This document shows positions 5,307 to 25,827 of a stretch of DNA of 64,000 nucleotides, piece after piece; the stretch's first letter is position 1; every line of letters begins with the position of its first letter. Source of the DNA: Candidatus Omnitrophota bacterium (lineage in GTDB: Bacteria > Omnitrophota > Gorgyraeia > Tantalellales > Tantalellaceae). The stretch is from positions 6,612 to 70,611 of the forward strand of contig JAYEOV010000017.1 of NCBI GenBank assembly GCA_034723315.1. Reading direction: 5' to 3'. Under the pieces are notes generated by a model that was not told the origin of the DNA, did not search any database, and saw nothing but the letters and a program-made list of their open reading frames with translations. The translations under genes and the position numbers were made by a program.

Positions 5307-5338
5307 GAAGAAAATTGTAACGCATTCGTAGATTACAG

Positions 5339-5410
5339 TTCGCGGCCTGGAGGCCGCTCCTACGGGTTATACAGCAACGCATTCGTAGGAGCGGCCTCCA
5401 GGCCGCGAAC
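5339..5410. repeat. Inverted REP doublet: GTTCGCGGCCTGGAGGCCGCTCCTACG at 5339-5365 and its reverse complement at 5384-5410
   Basis: Read directly. Each REP is also preceded by the short direct repeat AACGCATTCGTAG (5321-5333 and 5378-5390). Confidence 0.85.
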
Positions 5411-5421
5411 AAACAATAACG

Positions 5422-5919
5422 ATGATAAAATTATATCACCAAAACAAGTTGCGTAAAGCCAGAATATACGATTCAAAATATCCGTATTTTATGACAATTT
5501 GCGCATATAACATGCAAGATGTGCTGACAAAGGAATGTGTTCCGGAAATATTTGTTGAGAGCATTAAATGGTTTATCGCGAATTCGGTTATCTTAAATCT
5601 TGGTTTTGTGATCATGCCGAATCATTTGCACTGGGCTTTTGCCATAAGAGGGGATGGCAAGTTGGACAATATTATGCGCGAATTTAAAGGTTATACGGCA
5701 AGGAAGATTAAAAAACTATCAGATATTAAGCAGAAAATTTGGCAGAAGGGATATTATGATCATTCATTAAGAGATATGAAGGATTTCAAGATAAAGTTGG
5801 AATATATGCATAACAACCCGGTTAGAAAAGGTATAGTGGATAAAGCGGAGAATTATTTGTATTCAACGGCAAATGAAAGATATAAGGGATTGATAGATTG
5901 GGAGTATGTAACGGGATGA
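5422..5919 (+). CDS. REP-associated tyrosine transposase (RAYT; IS200/IS605-like Y1 HUH transposase, TnpA_REP)
   Basis: 165 aa with the HUH motif MPNHLHWAF and a C-terminal catalytic Tyr region (YLYSTANERY). The AT-rich ORF is sandwiched between GC-rich REP copies on both sides. Confidence 0.75.
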   Translation: MIKLYHQNKLRKARIYDSKYPYFMTICAYNMQDVLTKECVPEIFVESIKWFIANSVILNLGFVIMPNHLHWAFAIRGDGKLDNIMREFKGYTARKIKKLSDIKQKIWQKGYYDHSLRDMKDFKIKLEYMHNNPVRKGIVDKAENYLYSTANERYKGLIDWEYVTG

Positions 5920-5926
5920 AGGTACA

Positions 5927-6010
5927 GTTCGCGGCCTGGAGGCCGCTCCTACGTGGTGAGACGGGAGGGTTCGCGGCCTGGAGGCCGCTCCTACGGGTGA
6001 GACGGGAGGA
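5927..6010 (+). repeat. Tandem direct doublet of a 42-bp unit (REP GTTCGCGGCCTGGAGGCCGCTCCTACG + GGTGAGACGGGAGG), 5927-5968 and 5969-6010
   Basis: Read directly. The second unit's GGGAGGA also serves as the Shine-Dalgarno for secA (ATG at 6016). Confidence 0.85.
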
Positions 6011-10965: not shown

Positions 10966-11577
10966 ATGACCGTGAAAGAGCTTCTGCAAAAGTGTGTTGA
11001 CAGGGACCGGGACGCCTGGGATGAGTTCGTCAGGCGCTACAGGAGCGTTGTGGCCAGAAGCGTCCAATACAAGCTCAAGAACATGAACGCCTCTATGAAG
11101 AGGGGCGAATATCTCGACATCGTCCAGGAGATATTCCTTCTTATATGGGAGAAGGGAAGGCTTTCGAAGGTAAAGAACGCGAATTGTATCAGGGGCTGGC
11201 TCGCGATAGTCTCCATGAACGTGACGTCCAACTACTGCAGGAAACAGATACTGGAGTCCGGGGGCCGTCTGTTCTCACTTGACGGGAATCCCCTTTTAGA
11301 AGAGCAGGGGGCGATAATGAGAGACGTTTTACCCTCCGGGAGACTCGACACCAAAAAGATGCTGGAGTCGGGTGAGCTGAAAAGCGCCATTGACAGGGAG
11401 ATCGCGAAACTGGGCACGAAGCAGCGGCTTGCCCTGAAGTTCAACATATATGACGGGAAGAGCCAGAAGGACATCGCGGAGATAATGAATATCCCCGGAG
11501 GTACCGTCGCGACGCTTATCAAAAGGGCCAAAGAGCGTCTCCGGCACAGGCTGCGGGACATAAGGAAAATTATTTGA
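10966..11577 (+). CDS. ECF-type RNA polymerase sigma factor (sigma-70 regions 2 and 4)
   Basis: 203 aa with region 2 (DAWDEFVRRYRSVVARSV; IFLLIWEK) and a region 4 HTH (KQRLALKFNIYDGKSQKDIAEIMNIPGGTVATLIKRAKERLR). No adjacent anti-sigma gene is visible. Confidence 0.8.
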   Translation: MTVKELLQKCVDRDRDAWDEFVRRYRSVVARSVQYKLKNMNASMKRGEYLDIVQEIFLLIWEKGRLSKVKNANCIRGWLAIVSMNVTSNYCRKQILESGGRLFSLDGNPLLEEQGAIMRDVLPSGRLDTKKMLESGELKSAIDREIAKLGTKQRLALKFNIYDGKSQKDIAEIMNIPGGTVATLIKRAKERLRHRLRDIRKII

Positions 11578-11643
11578 TCTTTTTTGAAAGAAAAAGGCTA
11601 AAAATATTGTCTATAATAGTGTAGGGTAGTGTCAAAAATAATA

Positions 11644-11730
11644 TGAAAGAAAGGGCAAGTATTTCCCCCCTTTGAAAGAAAGGGCAAGTATTTCCCCCTT
11701 TGAAAGAAAGGGCAAGTATTTCCCCCCTTT
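11644..11730 (+). repeat. Three tandem direct repeats of a 28-29 bp unit TGAAAGAAAGGGCAAGTATTTCCCCC(C)T
   Basis: Read directly at about 11644, 11673 and 11702. The last copy merges into the left 28-bp inverted repeat at 11727. Confidence 0.85.
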
Positions 11731-12156
11731 GAAAAAGGGGGTTAGGGGGATTTTCTTTTTAGGATGTTAAAATACAACGTGAATTTAAAACACAAAGCTC
11801 GTCGATTACGCAGGGAAATGACAGATAGTGAGCGAGCGTTATGGACGAGGTTACGGGGAAAACAAATTTTAGATATTCAATTTTATCGGCAGAAGCCCAT
11901 TGGGGGCTATATTGTAGATTTTTATGCATCCCAGGCAAGGATTGTAGTAGAAGTGGATGGGGCACAGCATATGGAAACAGATCAGGAACAAAAAGATGCA
12001 CAACGAGATATATACTTGAAGAACGAGGGATTATATGTATTGCGTTTTAACAATCTACAAGTTTTGCAAGAGCTGGATTCTGTTATGGAAGTGATTTATC
12101 AAGCAGTAAAAGAAAGATTAGAAACTAAAAAATCCCCCTAACCCCCTTTTTCAAAG
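11727..12156. mobile_element. DUF559 endonuclease-like ORF bracketed by perfect 28-bp inverted repeats (CTTTGAAAAAGGGGGTTAGGGGGATTTT at 11727-11754; reverse complement at 12129-12156); candidate small selfish cassette
   Basis: Both arms read directly and are identical. The right arm overlaps the last 4 codons and the stop of the ORF. The interior is AT-rich compared with the flanking genes. Confidence 0.5.
11764..12141 (+). CDS. DUF559 (Vsr/restriction-endonuclease-like fold) domain protein
   Basis: 125 aa. ERALWTRLRGKQILDIQFYRQKPIGGYIVDFYASQARIVVEVDGAQH...VLRFNN matches the DUF559 pattern (ExxLWxxLR...FRRQxPIGxYIxDFxCxxxxLvIELDGxxH...vlRF). Confidence 0.7.
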   Translation: MLKYNVNLKHKARRLRREMTDSERALWTRLRGKQILDIQFYRQKPIGGYIVDFYASQARIVVEVDGAQHMETDQEQKDAQRDIYLKNEGLYVLRFNNLQVLQELDSVMEVIYQAVKERLETKKSP

Positions 12157-12315
12157 GGGGGAGGGGAGTAAGTATAACGCATTCATTTAAATAGAGGGCC
12201 TCTGGGAAACCGTGCAAGCCTAATAGGCTATTAAGAAGGTTCCCTGCCAGGAAAGCGGGAATCCACTGTTGGCGGTTAGCAGTGATACGCGATACGGAAC
12301 ACGCGATACGAAAAA

Positions 12316-14967
12316 ATGGACCTCATAGTCACCCATAAGAACTCGGATTTTGACGCTTTGAGCTCACTTGTAGCCGCAAGCAAGCTTTATCCCAGGGCCA
12401 GGCTGCTGCTTCCCGGGTCCCAGGAAAGGTCTGTGCGCAGTTTTCTCTCGCTTATAAAGGATAAGGTTAAGATAGAGAGCGAGAAGACCTGTCGCATGGA
12501 TGACGTTACTCGCCTTGTGATCGTGGACAACCGCCACAGGTCGCGTATCGGGATCGCGGCAAAACTCCTGGATAAACAAGGCGTCAAAGTGCATGTGTAC
12601 GATCATCATCCCAGGACAAGGTTCGACATAAAAGCCGATAAGGACGTGTTCAAAGAGGTCGGGGCGACCGTTTCCATCCTGCTGGAGATACTGGCAAGGA
12701 AGAGAAAACTGTCTTTGAGCCCTCTGGAAGCCACGTTGATGCTTCTGGGGATATACGAAGAAACGGGATCCCTTTCTTACTCGACGACGACCAGGCTTGA
12801 AGTGGACATGGTCAGCAGTCTCCTGGAGATGGGGGCGAACCTGAACGCCGTCTCATCCTACCTGAACAGAGAACTCACCGGCACGGAACTCTCGACGCTG
12901 ATAGAACTGCTGGAATCGATAGAGATCGCGGACATAAACGGCATAAATGTGGCTTTCGCGCACGTGGACGCGGACCGTCTGGACGGTGAAATGGGGACTG
13001 TTGTCCACAAACTGCAGGAGGTGGAGAATTATCCCGTCCTTTTCGCGATGTTCCGATCCCACGGAAGGATAAAGATCCTTGCGAGGAGCCGTGTCAATAT
13101 CATAGATGTGAACAAGCTTCTCGCGCACTTTAACGGGGCCGGTCATTCCAGCGCGGCAAGCGCCCGAATAGAAGACAGTTCCCTGAGTGAGGTGAAGGAG
13201 GATATCCTGCGCATAATAGGCAGGATGACCGAACCGGAAGTTTATGCCCGGGATATAATGACATTTCCCGTAAAGACGGTCTCACAGGAAGAAAAGGTTG
13301 ACGATGTCCTTGAGAAACTTGACCGTTTCGGGCATAAAGGGGCCCCGGTGCTCAATGAGAACGCTGAACTGACGGGCATGATAACTCTTGGAGACCTGAA
13401 AAAAGCGCTGAAACACGGGATGGGGCACTCCAGGATCAAAGGATACATGTCAACACCTTTAATAACCGTTACTCCCGGAGTTCCGCTGTATGAGCTCAGA
13501 AAGATACTGCTGGAGAAGGATAAGGGGCGCATACCTGTGATCAAGGACAACAATCTGGTCGGGATAGTGACGAGAAATGACGTTTTGAAGAAGATACACG
13601 GCGCGTTTTTCCCGGAGAAACCGGGGGAGGAGATCGCCGTGTCGAACATGTCCGAGGAGATGAGCAAAGTGCTCCCCGGGAAGCTCATGAAGCTGATAAG
13701 GCTTATCGGCGCGGAAGGGGACTCGCGCGGGATGAATGTGTTCCTGGTCGGCGGTTTTGTGCGCGACCTCCTGCTCGGGAAAGAGAATTATGACCTTGAT
13801 ATGGTCGTCGAAGGGAACGCCATAAAGTTCGGAAGGGTCCTTGCCGAAAAGATAGGCGGGTCTCTGGTCGTCCATCGCAAGTTCGGGACGTCCACGCTGG
13901 TAAAGGAGTGGCCGAAATGGCTGGGGCCGTCCCTTCATCCCGACAACAAGTTCAAGATAGACATTGCCACCGCCAGAAAAGAGGTTTACGAAAGACCCGC
14001 GGCCTTGCCCACGGTAGAATTCAGTTCCTTAAGGGACGATGTTTACCGCCGGGATTTCACGATAAACGCCATGGCCGTTAACATCAATAAAAAGAATTTT
14101 GGCCTGTTCCTGGATTTTTTCGGGGGTATGAACGATCTGCGAAGAGGGGTCATAAGGGTGCTGCATGACAAGAGCTTTATTGACGATCCTACCCGGATCT
14201 TCCGGGCGGTGAGGTTCGAGCAGAGGTTCGGTTTTTCGATCGAGACGCATACCGAATACCTGATCACTCACGCGGTAAAACGGGAAATGTTCCGCAGGAC
14301 CGAGAACCAGAGGATAAGGGATGAGTTGATACTGATATTGAAGGAAAAGGATCCCGAAAAGGCCGTTTTCAGGATGAGGGAACTACACGAGCTTCGATTC
14401 ATTCATCCTGAACTGGTGCTGAAAAGGACCATCGGAAAGACCTTCAGCGATATGAGAAGACGCGTCAAATGGTATGAGGCTAAAGCCGCGGGAAAGCGCC
14501 AGCTTGACATCTGGCTCATGAACCTTATGGTCATACTGGACAAGCTCACAGCGGAGCAGACAGAGGAAGTCCTTAGAAAGTTCGTGTTTACCAGAAGCGT
14601 AAGCATAAGGCTGCGGTCTTTCAAGAAAGAGGCGGATAAAGCCATAAAAAAACTTTCTTCCGGGAAAAGGATGATGCCGAGCCGGATCTATAGCCTCCTG
14701 GAGCCGTTTTCGCACGAAGTCACGCTCTGCGCTATGGCTAAGACAAAGTCCGAGGTGGCCAGAAGGCGCATCAGAAGGTTTTTTACCGAATATAACGGAA
14801 CGACACTGCTCGTCAAGGGGGAAGACATCAAAAGGGAAGGTGTAAAACCCGGCCCGAAGTACAAAAAGATACTGCGGCGGATCCTTTACAAAAAACTGGA
14901 CGGGAAACTCCTGTCGAGGAAAGATGAGATCGGGTACATGCGGGAGGTGATCGGTAAGGGGAAATAA
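12316..14967 (+). CDS. Multidomain DHH/DHHA1 phosphoesterase - tandem CBS - poly(A) polymerase/CCA-adding nucleotidyltransferase-family fusion protein
   Basis: 883 aa. N-terminal DHH (VYDHHP) and DHHA1 regions, two CBS domains (DIMTFPVKTV...; YMSTPLITV...), then a PolyA_pol head domain (FLVGGFVRDLLLGKENYDLDMVVEG; RRDFTINAMAV) and a C-terminal tRNA-NT tail. Confidence 0.75.
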   Translation: MDLIVTHKNSDFDALSSLVAASKLYPRARLLLPGSQERSVRSFLSLIKDKVKIESEKTCRMDDVTRLVIVDNRHRSRIGIAAKLLDKQGVKVHVYDHHPRTRFDIKADKDVFKEVGATVSILLEILARKRKLSLSPLEATLMLLGIYEETGSLSYSTTTRLEVDMVSSLLEMGANLNAVSSYLNRELTGTELSTLIELLESIEIADINGINVAFAHVDADRLDGEMGTVVHKLQEVENYPVLFAMFRSHGRIKILARSRVNIIDVNKLLAHFNGAGHSSAASARIEDSSLSEVKEDILRIIGRMTEPEVYARDIMTFPVKTVSQEEKVDDVLEKLDRFGHKGAPVLNENAELTGMITLGDLKKALKHGMGHSRIKGYMSTPLITVTPGVPLYELRKILLEKDKGRIPVIKDNNLVGIVTRNDVLKKIHGAFFPEKPGEEIAVSNMSEEMSKVLPGKLMKLIRLIGAEGDSRGMNVFLVGGFVRDLLLGKENYDLDMVVEGNAIKFGRVLAEKIGGSLVVHRKFGTSTLVKEWPKWLGPSLHPDNKFKIDIATARKEVYERPAALPTVEFSSLRDDVYRRDFTINAMAVNINKKNFGLFLDFFGGMNDLRRGVIRVLHDKSFIDDPTRIFRAVRFEQRFGFSIETHTEYLITHAVKREMFRRTENQRIRDELILILKEKDPEKAVFRMRELHELRFIHPELVLKRTIGKTFSDMRRRVKWYEAKAAGKRQLDIWLMNLMVILDKLTAEQTEEVLRKFVFTRSVSIRLRSFKKEADKAIKKLSSGKRMMPSRIYSLLEPFSHEVTLCAMAKTKSEVARRRIRRFFTEYNGTTLLVKGEDIKREGVKPGPKYKKILRRILYKKLDGKLLSRKDEIGYMREVIGKGK

Positions 14968-25676: not shown

Positions 25677-25730
25677 TGCTTAATTTAATGTAGTAGAAAA
25701 TTCCTTATTGAGAACACATTAACCAAAGCT

Positions 25731-25827
25731 GTAGGAGCGGCCTCCAGGCCGCGAACCCCCTAGTGTTAATTTTGTTAGCGGCCAGGAGGCCGCTCCTACG
25801 GGATAAGGCCTGGAGGCGGCTCCTACG
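25731..25827. repeat. Cluster of three REP copies (same family as at 5339-6010): full reverse-orientation copy 25731-25756, forward copy with a 1-nt deletion 25778-25800, partial forward copy 25808-25827
   Basis: gtaggagcggcctccaggccgcgaac / gcggccaggaggccgctcctacg / ggcctggaggcggctcctacg, read directly upstream of rimO. Confidence 0.8.

Follow-up and report, generated by a model that had tools for sequence, protein, structure and literature searches.

A DUF559 nuclease gene between inverted BoxC/PIT-type modules in an Omnitrophota contig, a candidate repeat-plus-nuclease cassette

Known since the 1990s, BoxC, PIT (potential intrastrand triplex) and triplex-motif (TMECO) repeats are a mark of unstable loci, with thousands of copies in Proteobacteria and Cyanobacteria; their description reportedly goes back to Bachellier in the 1990s and to Hoyne and Maher in 2000. 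The DUF559 proteins (Escherichia coli YcjD, Protein Data Bank (PDB) entry 3HRL) are, to our knowledge, a very large orphan family without an assigned role. Both come together in a 64-kb stretch of a Candidatus Omnitrophota contig (the window, meaning the whole stretch; element coordinates are window positions), where a DUF559 open reading frame (ORF) lies between two perfectly inverted repeat arms. New here is the physical link of DUF559 with BoxC/PIT-type repeats as a repeat-plus-nuclease selfish cassette. No paper joining DUF559 to BoxC, PIT or triplex repeats was found in the literature, the coverage of which is incomplete, and an earlier description is possible.

TMECO repeats follow the pattern CCCTCNCCC-N3-6-GGGNGAGGG-N3-GGGNGAGGG, with TTA (type A) or CCG (type B) as second loop. 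E. coli K-12 harbors 23 copies, five as inverted pairs, and 3610 copies are recorded across 262 proteobacterial genomes, relatives being abundant in cyanobacteria. TMECO forms a triplex in vitro and has been linked to locally rearranged loci, its function is not known, and Holder et al. (2015) never found transposases or integrases near these repeats (PMC4666352).

REPtrons, in which inverted REP hairpins flank a RAYT gene (Y1 HUH transposase) and REP/REPIN copies are dispersed, resemble the locus in several traits. A small nuclease gene stands between perfect inverted hairpin repeats, the repeats far outnumber the gene, doublets are the likely unit, and the element is single-copy in the genome, not a typical insertion sequence (IS). 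However, the DUF559 protein is a PD-(D/E)XK enzyme and not a Y1 HUH transposase, its ORF has no Y1_Tnp match, and its repeat carries an extra G-run after the hairpin and lacks a GTAG-type cleavage motif. With the homing endonuclease I-Bth0305I (PDB 3R3P), DUF559 shares the catalytic-domain fold as well as the presence/absence and gene-interrupting behaviour. In contrast, the DUF559 gene stands outside introns and inteins, encodes 125 aa without an extra N-terminal DNA-binding domain, and is flanked by repeat modules instead of the halves of a unique target.

A REPtron-like mobile cassette, with the DUF559 protein as cognate nuclease of its repeats, is the best explanation for the locus, and belief in it is about evenly balanced. 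More tentative is the wider proposal that BoxC/PIT/intrastrand-triplex repeats have their long-missing cognate nucleases in the DUF559 proteins and form with them a REPtron-like selfish system in at least 15 phyla, in which a Vsr-fold nuclease would recognise the folded (possibly triplex) module and drive break-repair copying. Good support exists for the cassette itself and for its mobility.

The cassette in the window and its nuclease

The arms form a perfect inverted repeat (IR) of 34 bp, 100% complementary, with 374 nt in between (Table 1). An earlier account made from the letters of the stretch (the sequence-only reading) had rightly called the IR perfect, but gave it a length of 28 bp. 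The arm 32-mer is found at these two sites only in the window, and 100 shuffles yielded none. As described there, the right arm overlaps the last codons and the stop. The stop codon TAA (12139-12141) lies inside the arm, where it coincides with the second loop of the module (3 nt, complementary to the TTA turn), and the C-runs of the right arm encode the terminal Ser-Pro of the ORF. Two further observations of that account were confirmed, namely the AT-richness (GC 0.36-0.43 across the element vs ~0.50-0.54 in the flanks) and the three ~28-bp tandem copies with an IR-like 3′ part (11644-11728). These units are spaced 29 and 28 nt and have no other copy in the window; in each unit, the 3′ part (CCCCCCTTTGAAAGAAAGGG) repeats the arm's hairpin half in degenerate form (C6-TTTGAAAGAAA-GGG).

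Judged by architecture, the assignment of the arms to the BoxC/PIT-type modules appears firmly supported. The arm (C6-TTTGAAAAA-G5-TTA-G5) fits the three-block order of the class II purine motif, with a C-rich stem, a complementary G-rich stem and a mirror G-rich stem. Block order and TTA turn are those of TMECO; both repeats are dispersed, intergenic and highly conserved, closely spaced inverted pairs are common in both, and both occur at rearrangement-prone loci. The stems of the arm are homopolymeric and 5-6 nt long (8 nt with a TTT/AAA extension), whereas TMECO blocks have 9 nt, and the first loop is A/T-rich and 9 nt long unless the TTT/AAA pair forms. Thus, the architecture agrees, while the literal TMECO pattern does not. 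A further difference is the nuclease gene nested between two modules here, the published repeats being without an associated mobility gene. Folding as DNA with Watson-Crick pairs only gave -7.7 kcal/mol for the left-arm hairpin and -13.0 kcal/mol for the right arm, where an extra downstream G-run pairs with the outer C-run. A known RNA family was rejected for the arms, as an Rfam scan of 11000-12800 returned two sub-threshold chance matches only (E 0.6-0.8).

Table 1. Features of the DUF559 cassette in the window
Feature	Position	Strand	Sequence and remarks
Outer terminus-like sequence	11625-11639	+	GGTAGTGTCAAAAAT; 15/15 match to the terminal inverted repeat at the left end of the ~640-bp CSMAG_496 element (alignment)
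Three tandem 28/29-nt units	11644-11671, 11673-11700 (1 mismatch), 11701-11728	+	TGAAAGAAAGGGCAAGTATTTCCCCCCT
Left arm (module M′)	11721-11754	+	TCCCCCCTTTGAAAAAGGGGGTTAGGGGGATTTT; C-run CCCCCC - loop TTTGAAAAA - GGGGG - TTA - GGGGG - ATTTT
Arm sequence with 5-nt G blocks			CCCCCCTTTGAAAAAGGGGGTTAGGGGG
DUF559 ORF	11764-12141	+	125 aa, intact
Right arm (module M)	12129-12162	+	Exact reverse complement of the left arm; last ORF residues K-K-S-P encoded here
Conserved tail	12163-12207	+	GGGGAGTAAGTATAACGCATTCATTTAAATAGAGGG vs GCATAGTGCATTCTTTAAAAAAGGGGG in CSMAG; homology with relatives stops here

The presence of a DUF559 ORF between the arms, also claimed from the letters, was borne out by a match to Pfam PF04480 with E=2.6e-37 and 127.5 bits (cut-off 20.6) over profile positions 3-108 of 109. 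NCBIfam PRK09767 (YcjD) matched with E=8e-24, under the equivalog cut-off, and a sequence search matched PDB 3HRL with E=1.1e-17. The invariant family residues D52, E63, D65, G66, H69, D78 and R81 are all present in the window protein. An AlphaFold model (pLDDT 87) has its best structural match in 3HRL (TM 0.88 on the target); the next folds are 3R3P, the I-Bth0305I catalytic domain (Foldseek prob 1.0, TM 0.73 relative to the target), then AbaSI/PvuRts1I and Vsr. The product is predicted to be a Vsr-like/EDxHD-like PD-(D/E)XK nuclease. PADLOC yielded weak domain-level matches only (DpdF, mREase, HEase) and no defence-system membership.

Comparison of the window protein with relatives in other hosts gave dN/dS values of 0.10-0.23. 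Against the cassette L157, synonymous sites are saturated (dS ~1.6), and the 30-nt module is identical. Selection on both protein and module, purifying in the case of the ORF and with the module more constrained than the protein, appears firmly supported by these comparisons. The protein P0001, 100% identical to the window DUF559, assigns the host to a Candidatus Omnitrophota metagenome-assembled genome. A further protein, P0002, is 93% identical to the window DUF559. Another, P0003 (216 aa, from a 736-bp ENA contig), comprises two tandem DUF559 domains joined by a module-encoded linker (..IPPGPPLKKGERGG..), which suggests head-to-tail cassettes read through as a single ORF.

The arms may instead control expression of a potentially toxic nuclease: an mRNA-arm duplex of ~40 bp would hide the start region or recruit RNase III, or each arm would insulate the gene against transcription from outside. 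The 5′/3′ mRNA duplex proposed in the sequence-only reading is thermodynamically real, since in the computed RNA structure of 11715-12170 the entire mRNA is closed by the arm duplex, at a minimum free energy of -140.6 kcal/mol (z = -8.5 vs shuffles). In addition, the second G-run, 7-16 nt ahead of the start codon, could also serve as Shine-Dalgarno sequence. However, this control leaves the many gene-less copies unexplained (79 of 83 copies of the arm's 30-mer lack an adjoining DUF559 gene), and the spacing from module to start codon is not conserved. A consensus scan of 11400-12500 found no terminator-like site at either arm and no promoter at the arms, and PIT elements were without promoter or terminator activity in published tests (PMC4666352). 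Control of this kind may coexist with the action of a cognate nuclease, but as the explanation of the arms it is quite unlikely.

An invertible, phase-variable cassette is highly improbable. Here, the 34-bp arms would recombine and flip the 374-bp segment, so that the gene would change its direction relative to read-through from the sigma gene upstream. The IR is perfect over 34 bp, and DUF559 genes are 14-fold enriched among predicted programmed-inversion targets; the survey of IR-overlapped genes lists 'DUF559 domain-containing protein' with an odds ratio of 14 and 'endonuclease domain-containing protein' with 10, uncommented there, but this enrichment is a model prediction from IR geometry and not an observed inversion (PMC9881135). 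Moreover, no recombinase is found among the annotated neighbours in window 27-22348 (within ~10 kb), and a copy of the cassette between hydF and hydG has the same orientation in three independent samples.

Modules and DUF559 genes across phyla

A scan of one genome per species identified 80 DUF559 loci with 36-84% identity in more than 15 phyla. They include Clostridia, Gamma- and Betaproteobacteria, Desulfobacterota, Aminicenantes, Chloroflexota and Planctomycetota, further Bacteroidota/Ignavibacteria, Patescibacteria, Zixibacteria, Synergistota, Deinococcota and others. Modules were sought with a sequence-independent detector for a C-stem, a loop and the complementary G-stem, followed after 2-5 nt by a mirror G-stem. 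Applied to the window, it reported the two DUF559-flanking modules and no others. Across the 80 loci, modules number 2.07/kb up to 200 bp from the gene vs 0.139/kb elsewhere, a 15-fold difference. At least one module occurs in 56 of the loci and modules on both sides in 26; 20 loci show the layout M′..gene..M, with the hairpins outside and the extra G/C block beside the gene, and 5 show the opposite one. When the best IR spanning each gene was sought without bias, most loci yielded long arms arranged as in the window, lineage-specific in sequence, e.g. a 42-bp perfect IR in Tepidisphaeraceae (L049, CCCTCCCCTGGTACTCCGGGGGAGGGTTGGGGTGGGGG). TMECO-like modules occur at DUF559 loci of Gallionellales, Patescibacteria and Geobacter type. 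The situation named by the sequence-only reading as refuting, an ORF that keeps its position but lacks the IRs, was not encountered. Co-orientation with neighbours (79% upstream, 60% downstream) was dropped as a signal, not being clearly unlike ordinary gene order.

The association extends into the proteins. Among the 120 closest homologues in a collection of 5.8 billion proteins, 61 end in module-encoded tails (..NPP*, ..PPxPPLxKGG, ..IPPxPPLxKGG), and several have module-encoded N-terminal extensions (..FEKGGLGGI..). Hence, the gene ends are built into modules. The enrichment of DUF559 genes among IR-overlapped genes in the independent survey cited above (PMC9881135) also speaks for the link. 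A specific and ancient association of DUF559 genes with BoxC/PIT-type modules appears firmly supported from these sequences.

Most modules occur without the gene. The exact 30-mer of the arm, CCCCTTTGAAAAAGGGGGNTAGGGGGATTT, was retrieved from at least 120 metagenome stretches with a host GC of 32-70%. DUF559 adjoins four of the 83 occurrences examined, two of which (L136, L157) have the exact window layout. The remaining ones are solitary or form M/M′ doublets 45-80 bp apart. Conservation is limited to ~35 nt around the 30-mer, and 57 of the 83 copies lie outside any open frame of at least 100 aa. The arms are therefore not the element-specific terminal repeats for which they had been taken, but a dispersed BoxC/PIT-type module. 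Gene-less inverted doublets are also located 1-2 kb from DUF559 genes (L020, L049). Tandem partial-hairpin units accompany three of 76 gene-less modules in a strict test, always on the C-run side; as a general trait of gene-less modules the array was rejected, being recurrent and not universal. A separate MITE-like element (MITE, miniature inverted-repeat transposable element) with a central M-M′ doublet was observed in the metagenome contigs L092, L097, L133, L140, L148 and L151; its own terminal inverted repeats (TIRs) measure ~25 bp (..ATGAAGGTTAAATAATTAATCGGG.. / ..CCCGATTAATTATTTAACCTTCAT).

The gene-less copies also bear on a doubtful alternative, in which the modules spread or persist otherwise (by replication slippage, another enzyme or structural selection) and DUF559 is an independent homing-type selfish gene that neither makes nor moves modules and prefers existing module doublets as safe intergenic landing sites. 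Gene-less modules vastly outnumber gene-linked ones, gene-less M′-spacer-M doublets are possible targets, the DUF559 fold is like that of a homing endonuclease catalytic domain, and E. coli O157 has 11 TMECO copies and no ycjD (PMC4666352 supplement). However, stop and C-terminal codons are module-built in about half of the close homologues. Modules move jointly with the gene from one phylum to another, and into a coding sequence whose orthologues are without a resident module. The 15-fold enrichment of modules around the gene includes extra tandem or degenerate copies.

E. coli K-12 carries one DUF559 gene, ycjD (b1289), between sapF and fabI, and YcjD is 43% identical to the window protein. 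As in the window, a C-rich hairpin covers the stop codon. A BoxC/TMECO repeat follows downstream (the full TMECO CCCCTCGCCCCTCTGGGGAGAGGGTTAGGGTGAGGGG at ~170 bp), and the segment varies among strains. The ycjD module differs in being of TMECO type (CCCTC../GGGAGAGGG-TTA-GGGTGAGGG), and, as an upstream module is lacking, no perfect IR surrounds the gene. Of 5426 complete E. coli genomes, 3375 carry the ycjD-BoxC segment; in the others, an 8-kb eefRABCD island occupies the same sapF-fabI site. According to Pugh et al., eef was lost at least two times independently, with ycjD then in its place (PMC12817139). The phylogroups A/B1/C, which bear ycjD, have higher published TMECO counts (19-30 copies) than B2 (1-2 copies) (PMC4666352 supplement). 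At the K-12 locus (L091, NC_000913 1351040-1351830), a 39-nt duplicate of the ycjD 3′ end (90% identical) lies between the stop and TMECO, followed by a partial module, and a 17-bp perfect palindrome (TCACCTCATTCTGACAA) is located just upstream of the ycjD start.

Copies elsewhere, outer ends and the window locus

A Clostridia metagenome-assembled genome, CSMAG_496 (JAUVLC01, L001-L029), contains at least 10 cassette copies that align with the window element. Identity to the window protein is 82-84% (dS ~0.32), the non-coding ends align as well, and the loci are unrelated. The number of tandem partial-hairpin units varies from one to three among these copies (L001-L018). Several are frameshifted or truncated, and L008, L012 and L018 share one 5-nt deletion frameshift. 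L016 and L029 have a different N-terminal half, exchanged at the same codon. Other close copies were found between hydF and hydG (86% identity, the three samples mentioned above), between uvrB and birA (76%) and between hisC-like and aroG-like genes of an aromatic amino-acid cluster (69%). In L084, at least five 36-nt tandem partial hairpins precede M′ and another array follows the gene.

An insertion into a gene is seen on plasmid CP101712 of Synechocystis sp. B12 (L214), where a 501-bp M-DUF559-M′ cassette splits a DUF1156 methylase gene. The DUF1156 orthologues of Nostoc and Planktothrix are uninterrupted in this comparison across genera. Homology of the host gene ends with ..DLYPGIE just before the first module and restarts with LTSVAYLWTRT.. 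just after the second, and the cassette takes the place of a variable linker of 30-41 residues. With the split and an extra frameshift near 1202-1223, the DUF1156 gene (L214 843-3321) is a pseudogene. Another plasmid of the same strain harbors a second DUF559 gene (CP101716, hit H57). The mobile cassette suspected in the sequence-only reading is thus upheld by near-identical copies at unrelated loci in different phyla, and by a copy that interrupts a gene. That the module-gene-module arrangement represents a discrete, horizontally transferred insertion unit appears firmly supported by these alignments. Phages or plasmids were discarded as the usual carriers, because the 30-mer had 0 matches in 2.9 million viral contigs and few DUF559 relatives occur in collections of phages (3 records) and plasmids (48 records, mostly megaplasmids).

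The repeated unit of CSMAG_496 measures ~640 bp and is bounded by outer TIRs of 13-15 bp, GGTAGTGTCAAAAAT ... ATTTTTGACATTACC, also written GGTAGTGTCAAAA../..TTTTGACATTACC. Perfect 8-bp direct duplications adjoin the outer ends in two of four testable copies (TTAATAGA in L002, AAAACGAG in L016). On sequence grounds, TIRs and duplications are the signature of DDE-type transposition of a MITE-like unit. The IS6/IS26 family makes 8-bp duplications, and the outer ends together with the duplication are presumably IS6/IS26-like. In these closest multicopy relatives the unit is therefore larger than the miniature element ending at the IR that had been proposed. Solo right-end-like motifs (AAATAAAACATTTTTGACATTACT) occur 10-15 nt before the ribosome-binding site of unrelated genes in CSMAG_496.

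The outer ends raise the possibility that the DUF559 gene and the modules are cargo of a MITE or IS passenger, mobilised in trans by a transposase acting on the outer TIRs. The copies in CSMAG_496 have common outer TIRs, frameshifted copies have proliferated, and the window element retains the left TIR exactly. The window element differs from a MITE or IS in that its 34-bp arms are internal, no transposase is encoded, and neither a right outer TIR (at up to 3 mismatches near the element) nor a target duplication was found. Moreover, most other cassettes (L081, L084, L157, the Synechocystis plasmid, E. coli) lack the outer TIRs and still keep the module-gene-module core. The duplication is seen in only half of the testable CSMAG_496 copies, and the cross-phylum association with modules is not explained. 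As a general account, the passenger is unlikely.

The feature in the window is a remnant of a horizontally acquired element that carries a module-gene-module cassette. It spans ~580 bp (11625-12207) and encloses module M′, the DUF559 gene and module M. The copy in the window, which keeps the left terminus and the ~45 bp tail but not the right terminus, is most aptly seen as a partly decayed insertion with an intact core, an ordinary member of the cassette type.

Upstream of the element are SecA, Lnt and an extracytoplasmic-function (ECF)-type sigma factor, downstream a DHH-CBS-polyA-polymerase-head protein. The neighbours comprise MurJ, UvrC, RF, a Y1 transposase, SecA, Lnt, sigma, DHH-CBS-CCA, an NrnA-like protein, TruB, RibF and PNPase. 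SecA-Lnt-sigma is syntenic with the related Omnitrophota contig L088. In three relatives (L087, L088, L089), sigma is followed by a zf-HC2 anti-sigma, spoVG, UPF0102 and comM, none of which is found anywhere in the window. As SecA-Lnt-sigma is conserved and the downstream genes differ, the element lies at a synteny break (window 10966-12316) and its insertion boundary is undefinable. The comparison of the ECF-sigma to DHH-CBS interval advised by the sequence-only reading revealed this break. The break echoes the instability reported at TMECO sites and the replacement in E. coli.

The window harbors a REPtron of its own at 5338-5995. A 165-aa Y1_Tnp ORF (5422-5919; PF01797, E=3e-9, IS200-like) is bracketed by four perfect 27-nt palindromic repeats (GTTCGCGGCCTGGAGGCCGCTCCTACG) containing CGTAG, one upstream copy being inverted. 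A further inverted REP doublet with 1-2 mismatches is located at 25730-25800. In geometry, this textbook REPtron closely parallels the DUF559 cassette, from which it differs in enzyme fold and repeat type. The leader of the DHH-CBS-polyA-polymerase gene (12204-12313) contains a nested hairpin (GGGAAACC..AGCCTAATAGGCT..GGTTCCC) without an Rfam match, and a 13-nt direct repeat (ACGCGATACGGAA/ACGCGATACGAAA) lies at 12287-12313, just before that start codon. Runs of at least 5 G number 69 on the + strand of the window vs 18 on the - strand.

Action on the modules and its meaning

As the cassette recurs across many phyla, the DUF559 nuclease is a candidate for the enzyme that spreads the repeats. 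In the most economical mechanism, the protein would recognise the module, either folded or as duplex, and nick or cut there. The break may then be repaired by copying from another module-bearing template, by which modules would spread. A template in the form of an inverted doublet with the gene inside would spread the gene too, with the ~35-bp arms as homology. In function, this would be analogous to a REPtron or to a homing endonuclease residing in a repeated target, with another nuclease fold and another repeat type. The TMECO counts of the E. coli phylogroups fit such a mechanism. That the DUF559 protein acts on the modules, and in which way, is inferred from sequence.

Several observations count against this mechanism. 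PD-(D/E)XK nucleases cut DNA without strand transfer, so that spread must depend on host repair. The frameshift common to three copies at different loci in CSMAG_496 indicates proliferation without an intact DUF559 in cis, and the DDE-type signature of the outer ends there weighs on the same side. No gene-less module was detected in the 64-kb window, and 24 of the 80 DUF559 loci have no module by the detector. Homing, which the sequence-only reading had considered, is unproven; the window locus offers no clean empty site, because the closest sigma relatives are 58% identical and synteny breaks at the element. In E. coli, the correlation between TMECO copy number and ycjD is confounded by phylogeny, and O157, as noted, keeps its TMECO copies without ycjD. 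Finally, Maher and co-workers saw no phenotype for PIT elements, as summarised in PMC4666352.

From the DUF559-module link follows a testable hypothesis for each partner: the enzyme gains a defined substrate, the repeat a candidate enzyme. If true, it would establish a second repeat-plus-nuclease system beside REP/RAYT, mechanistically different from it, and would explain both the proliferation of the repeats and the genome instability around them. It would likewise explain why DUF559 stands out in screens for inversion candidates and why the sapF-fabI locus of E. coli has been remodelled repeatedly.

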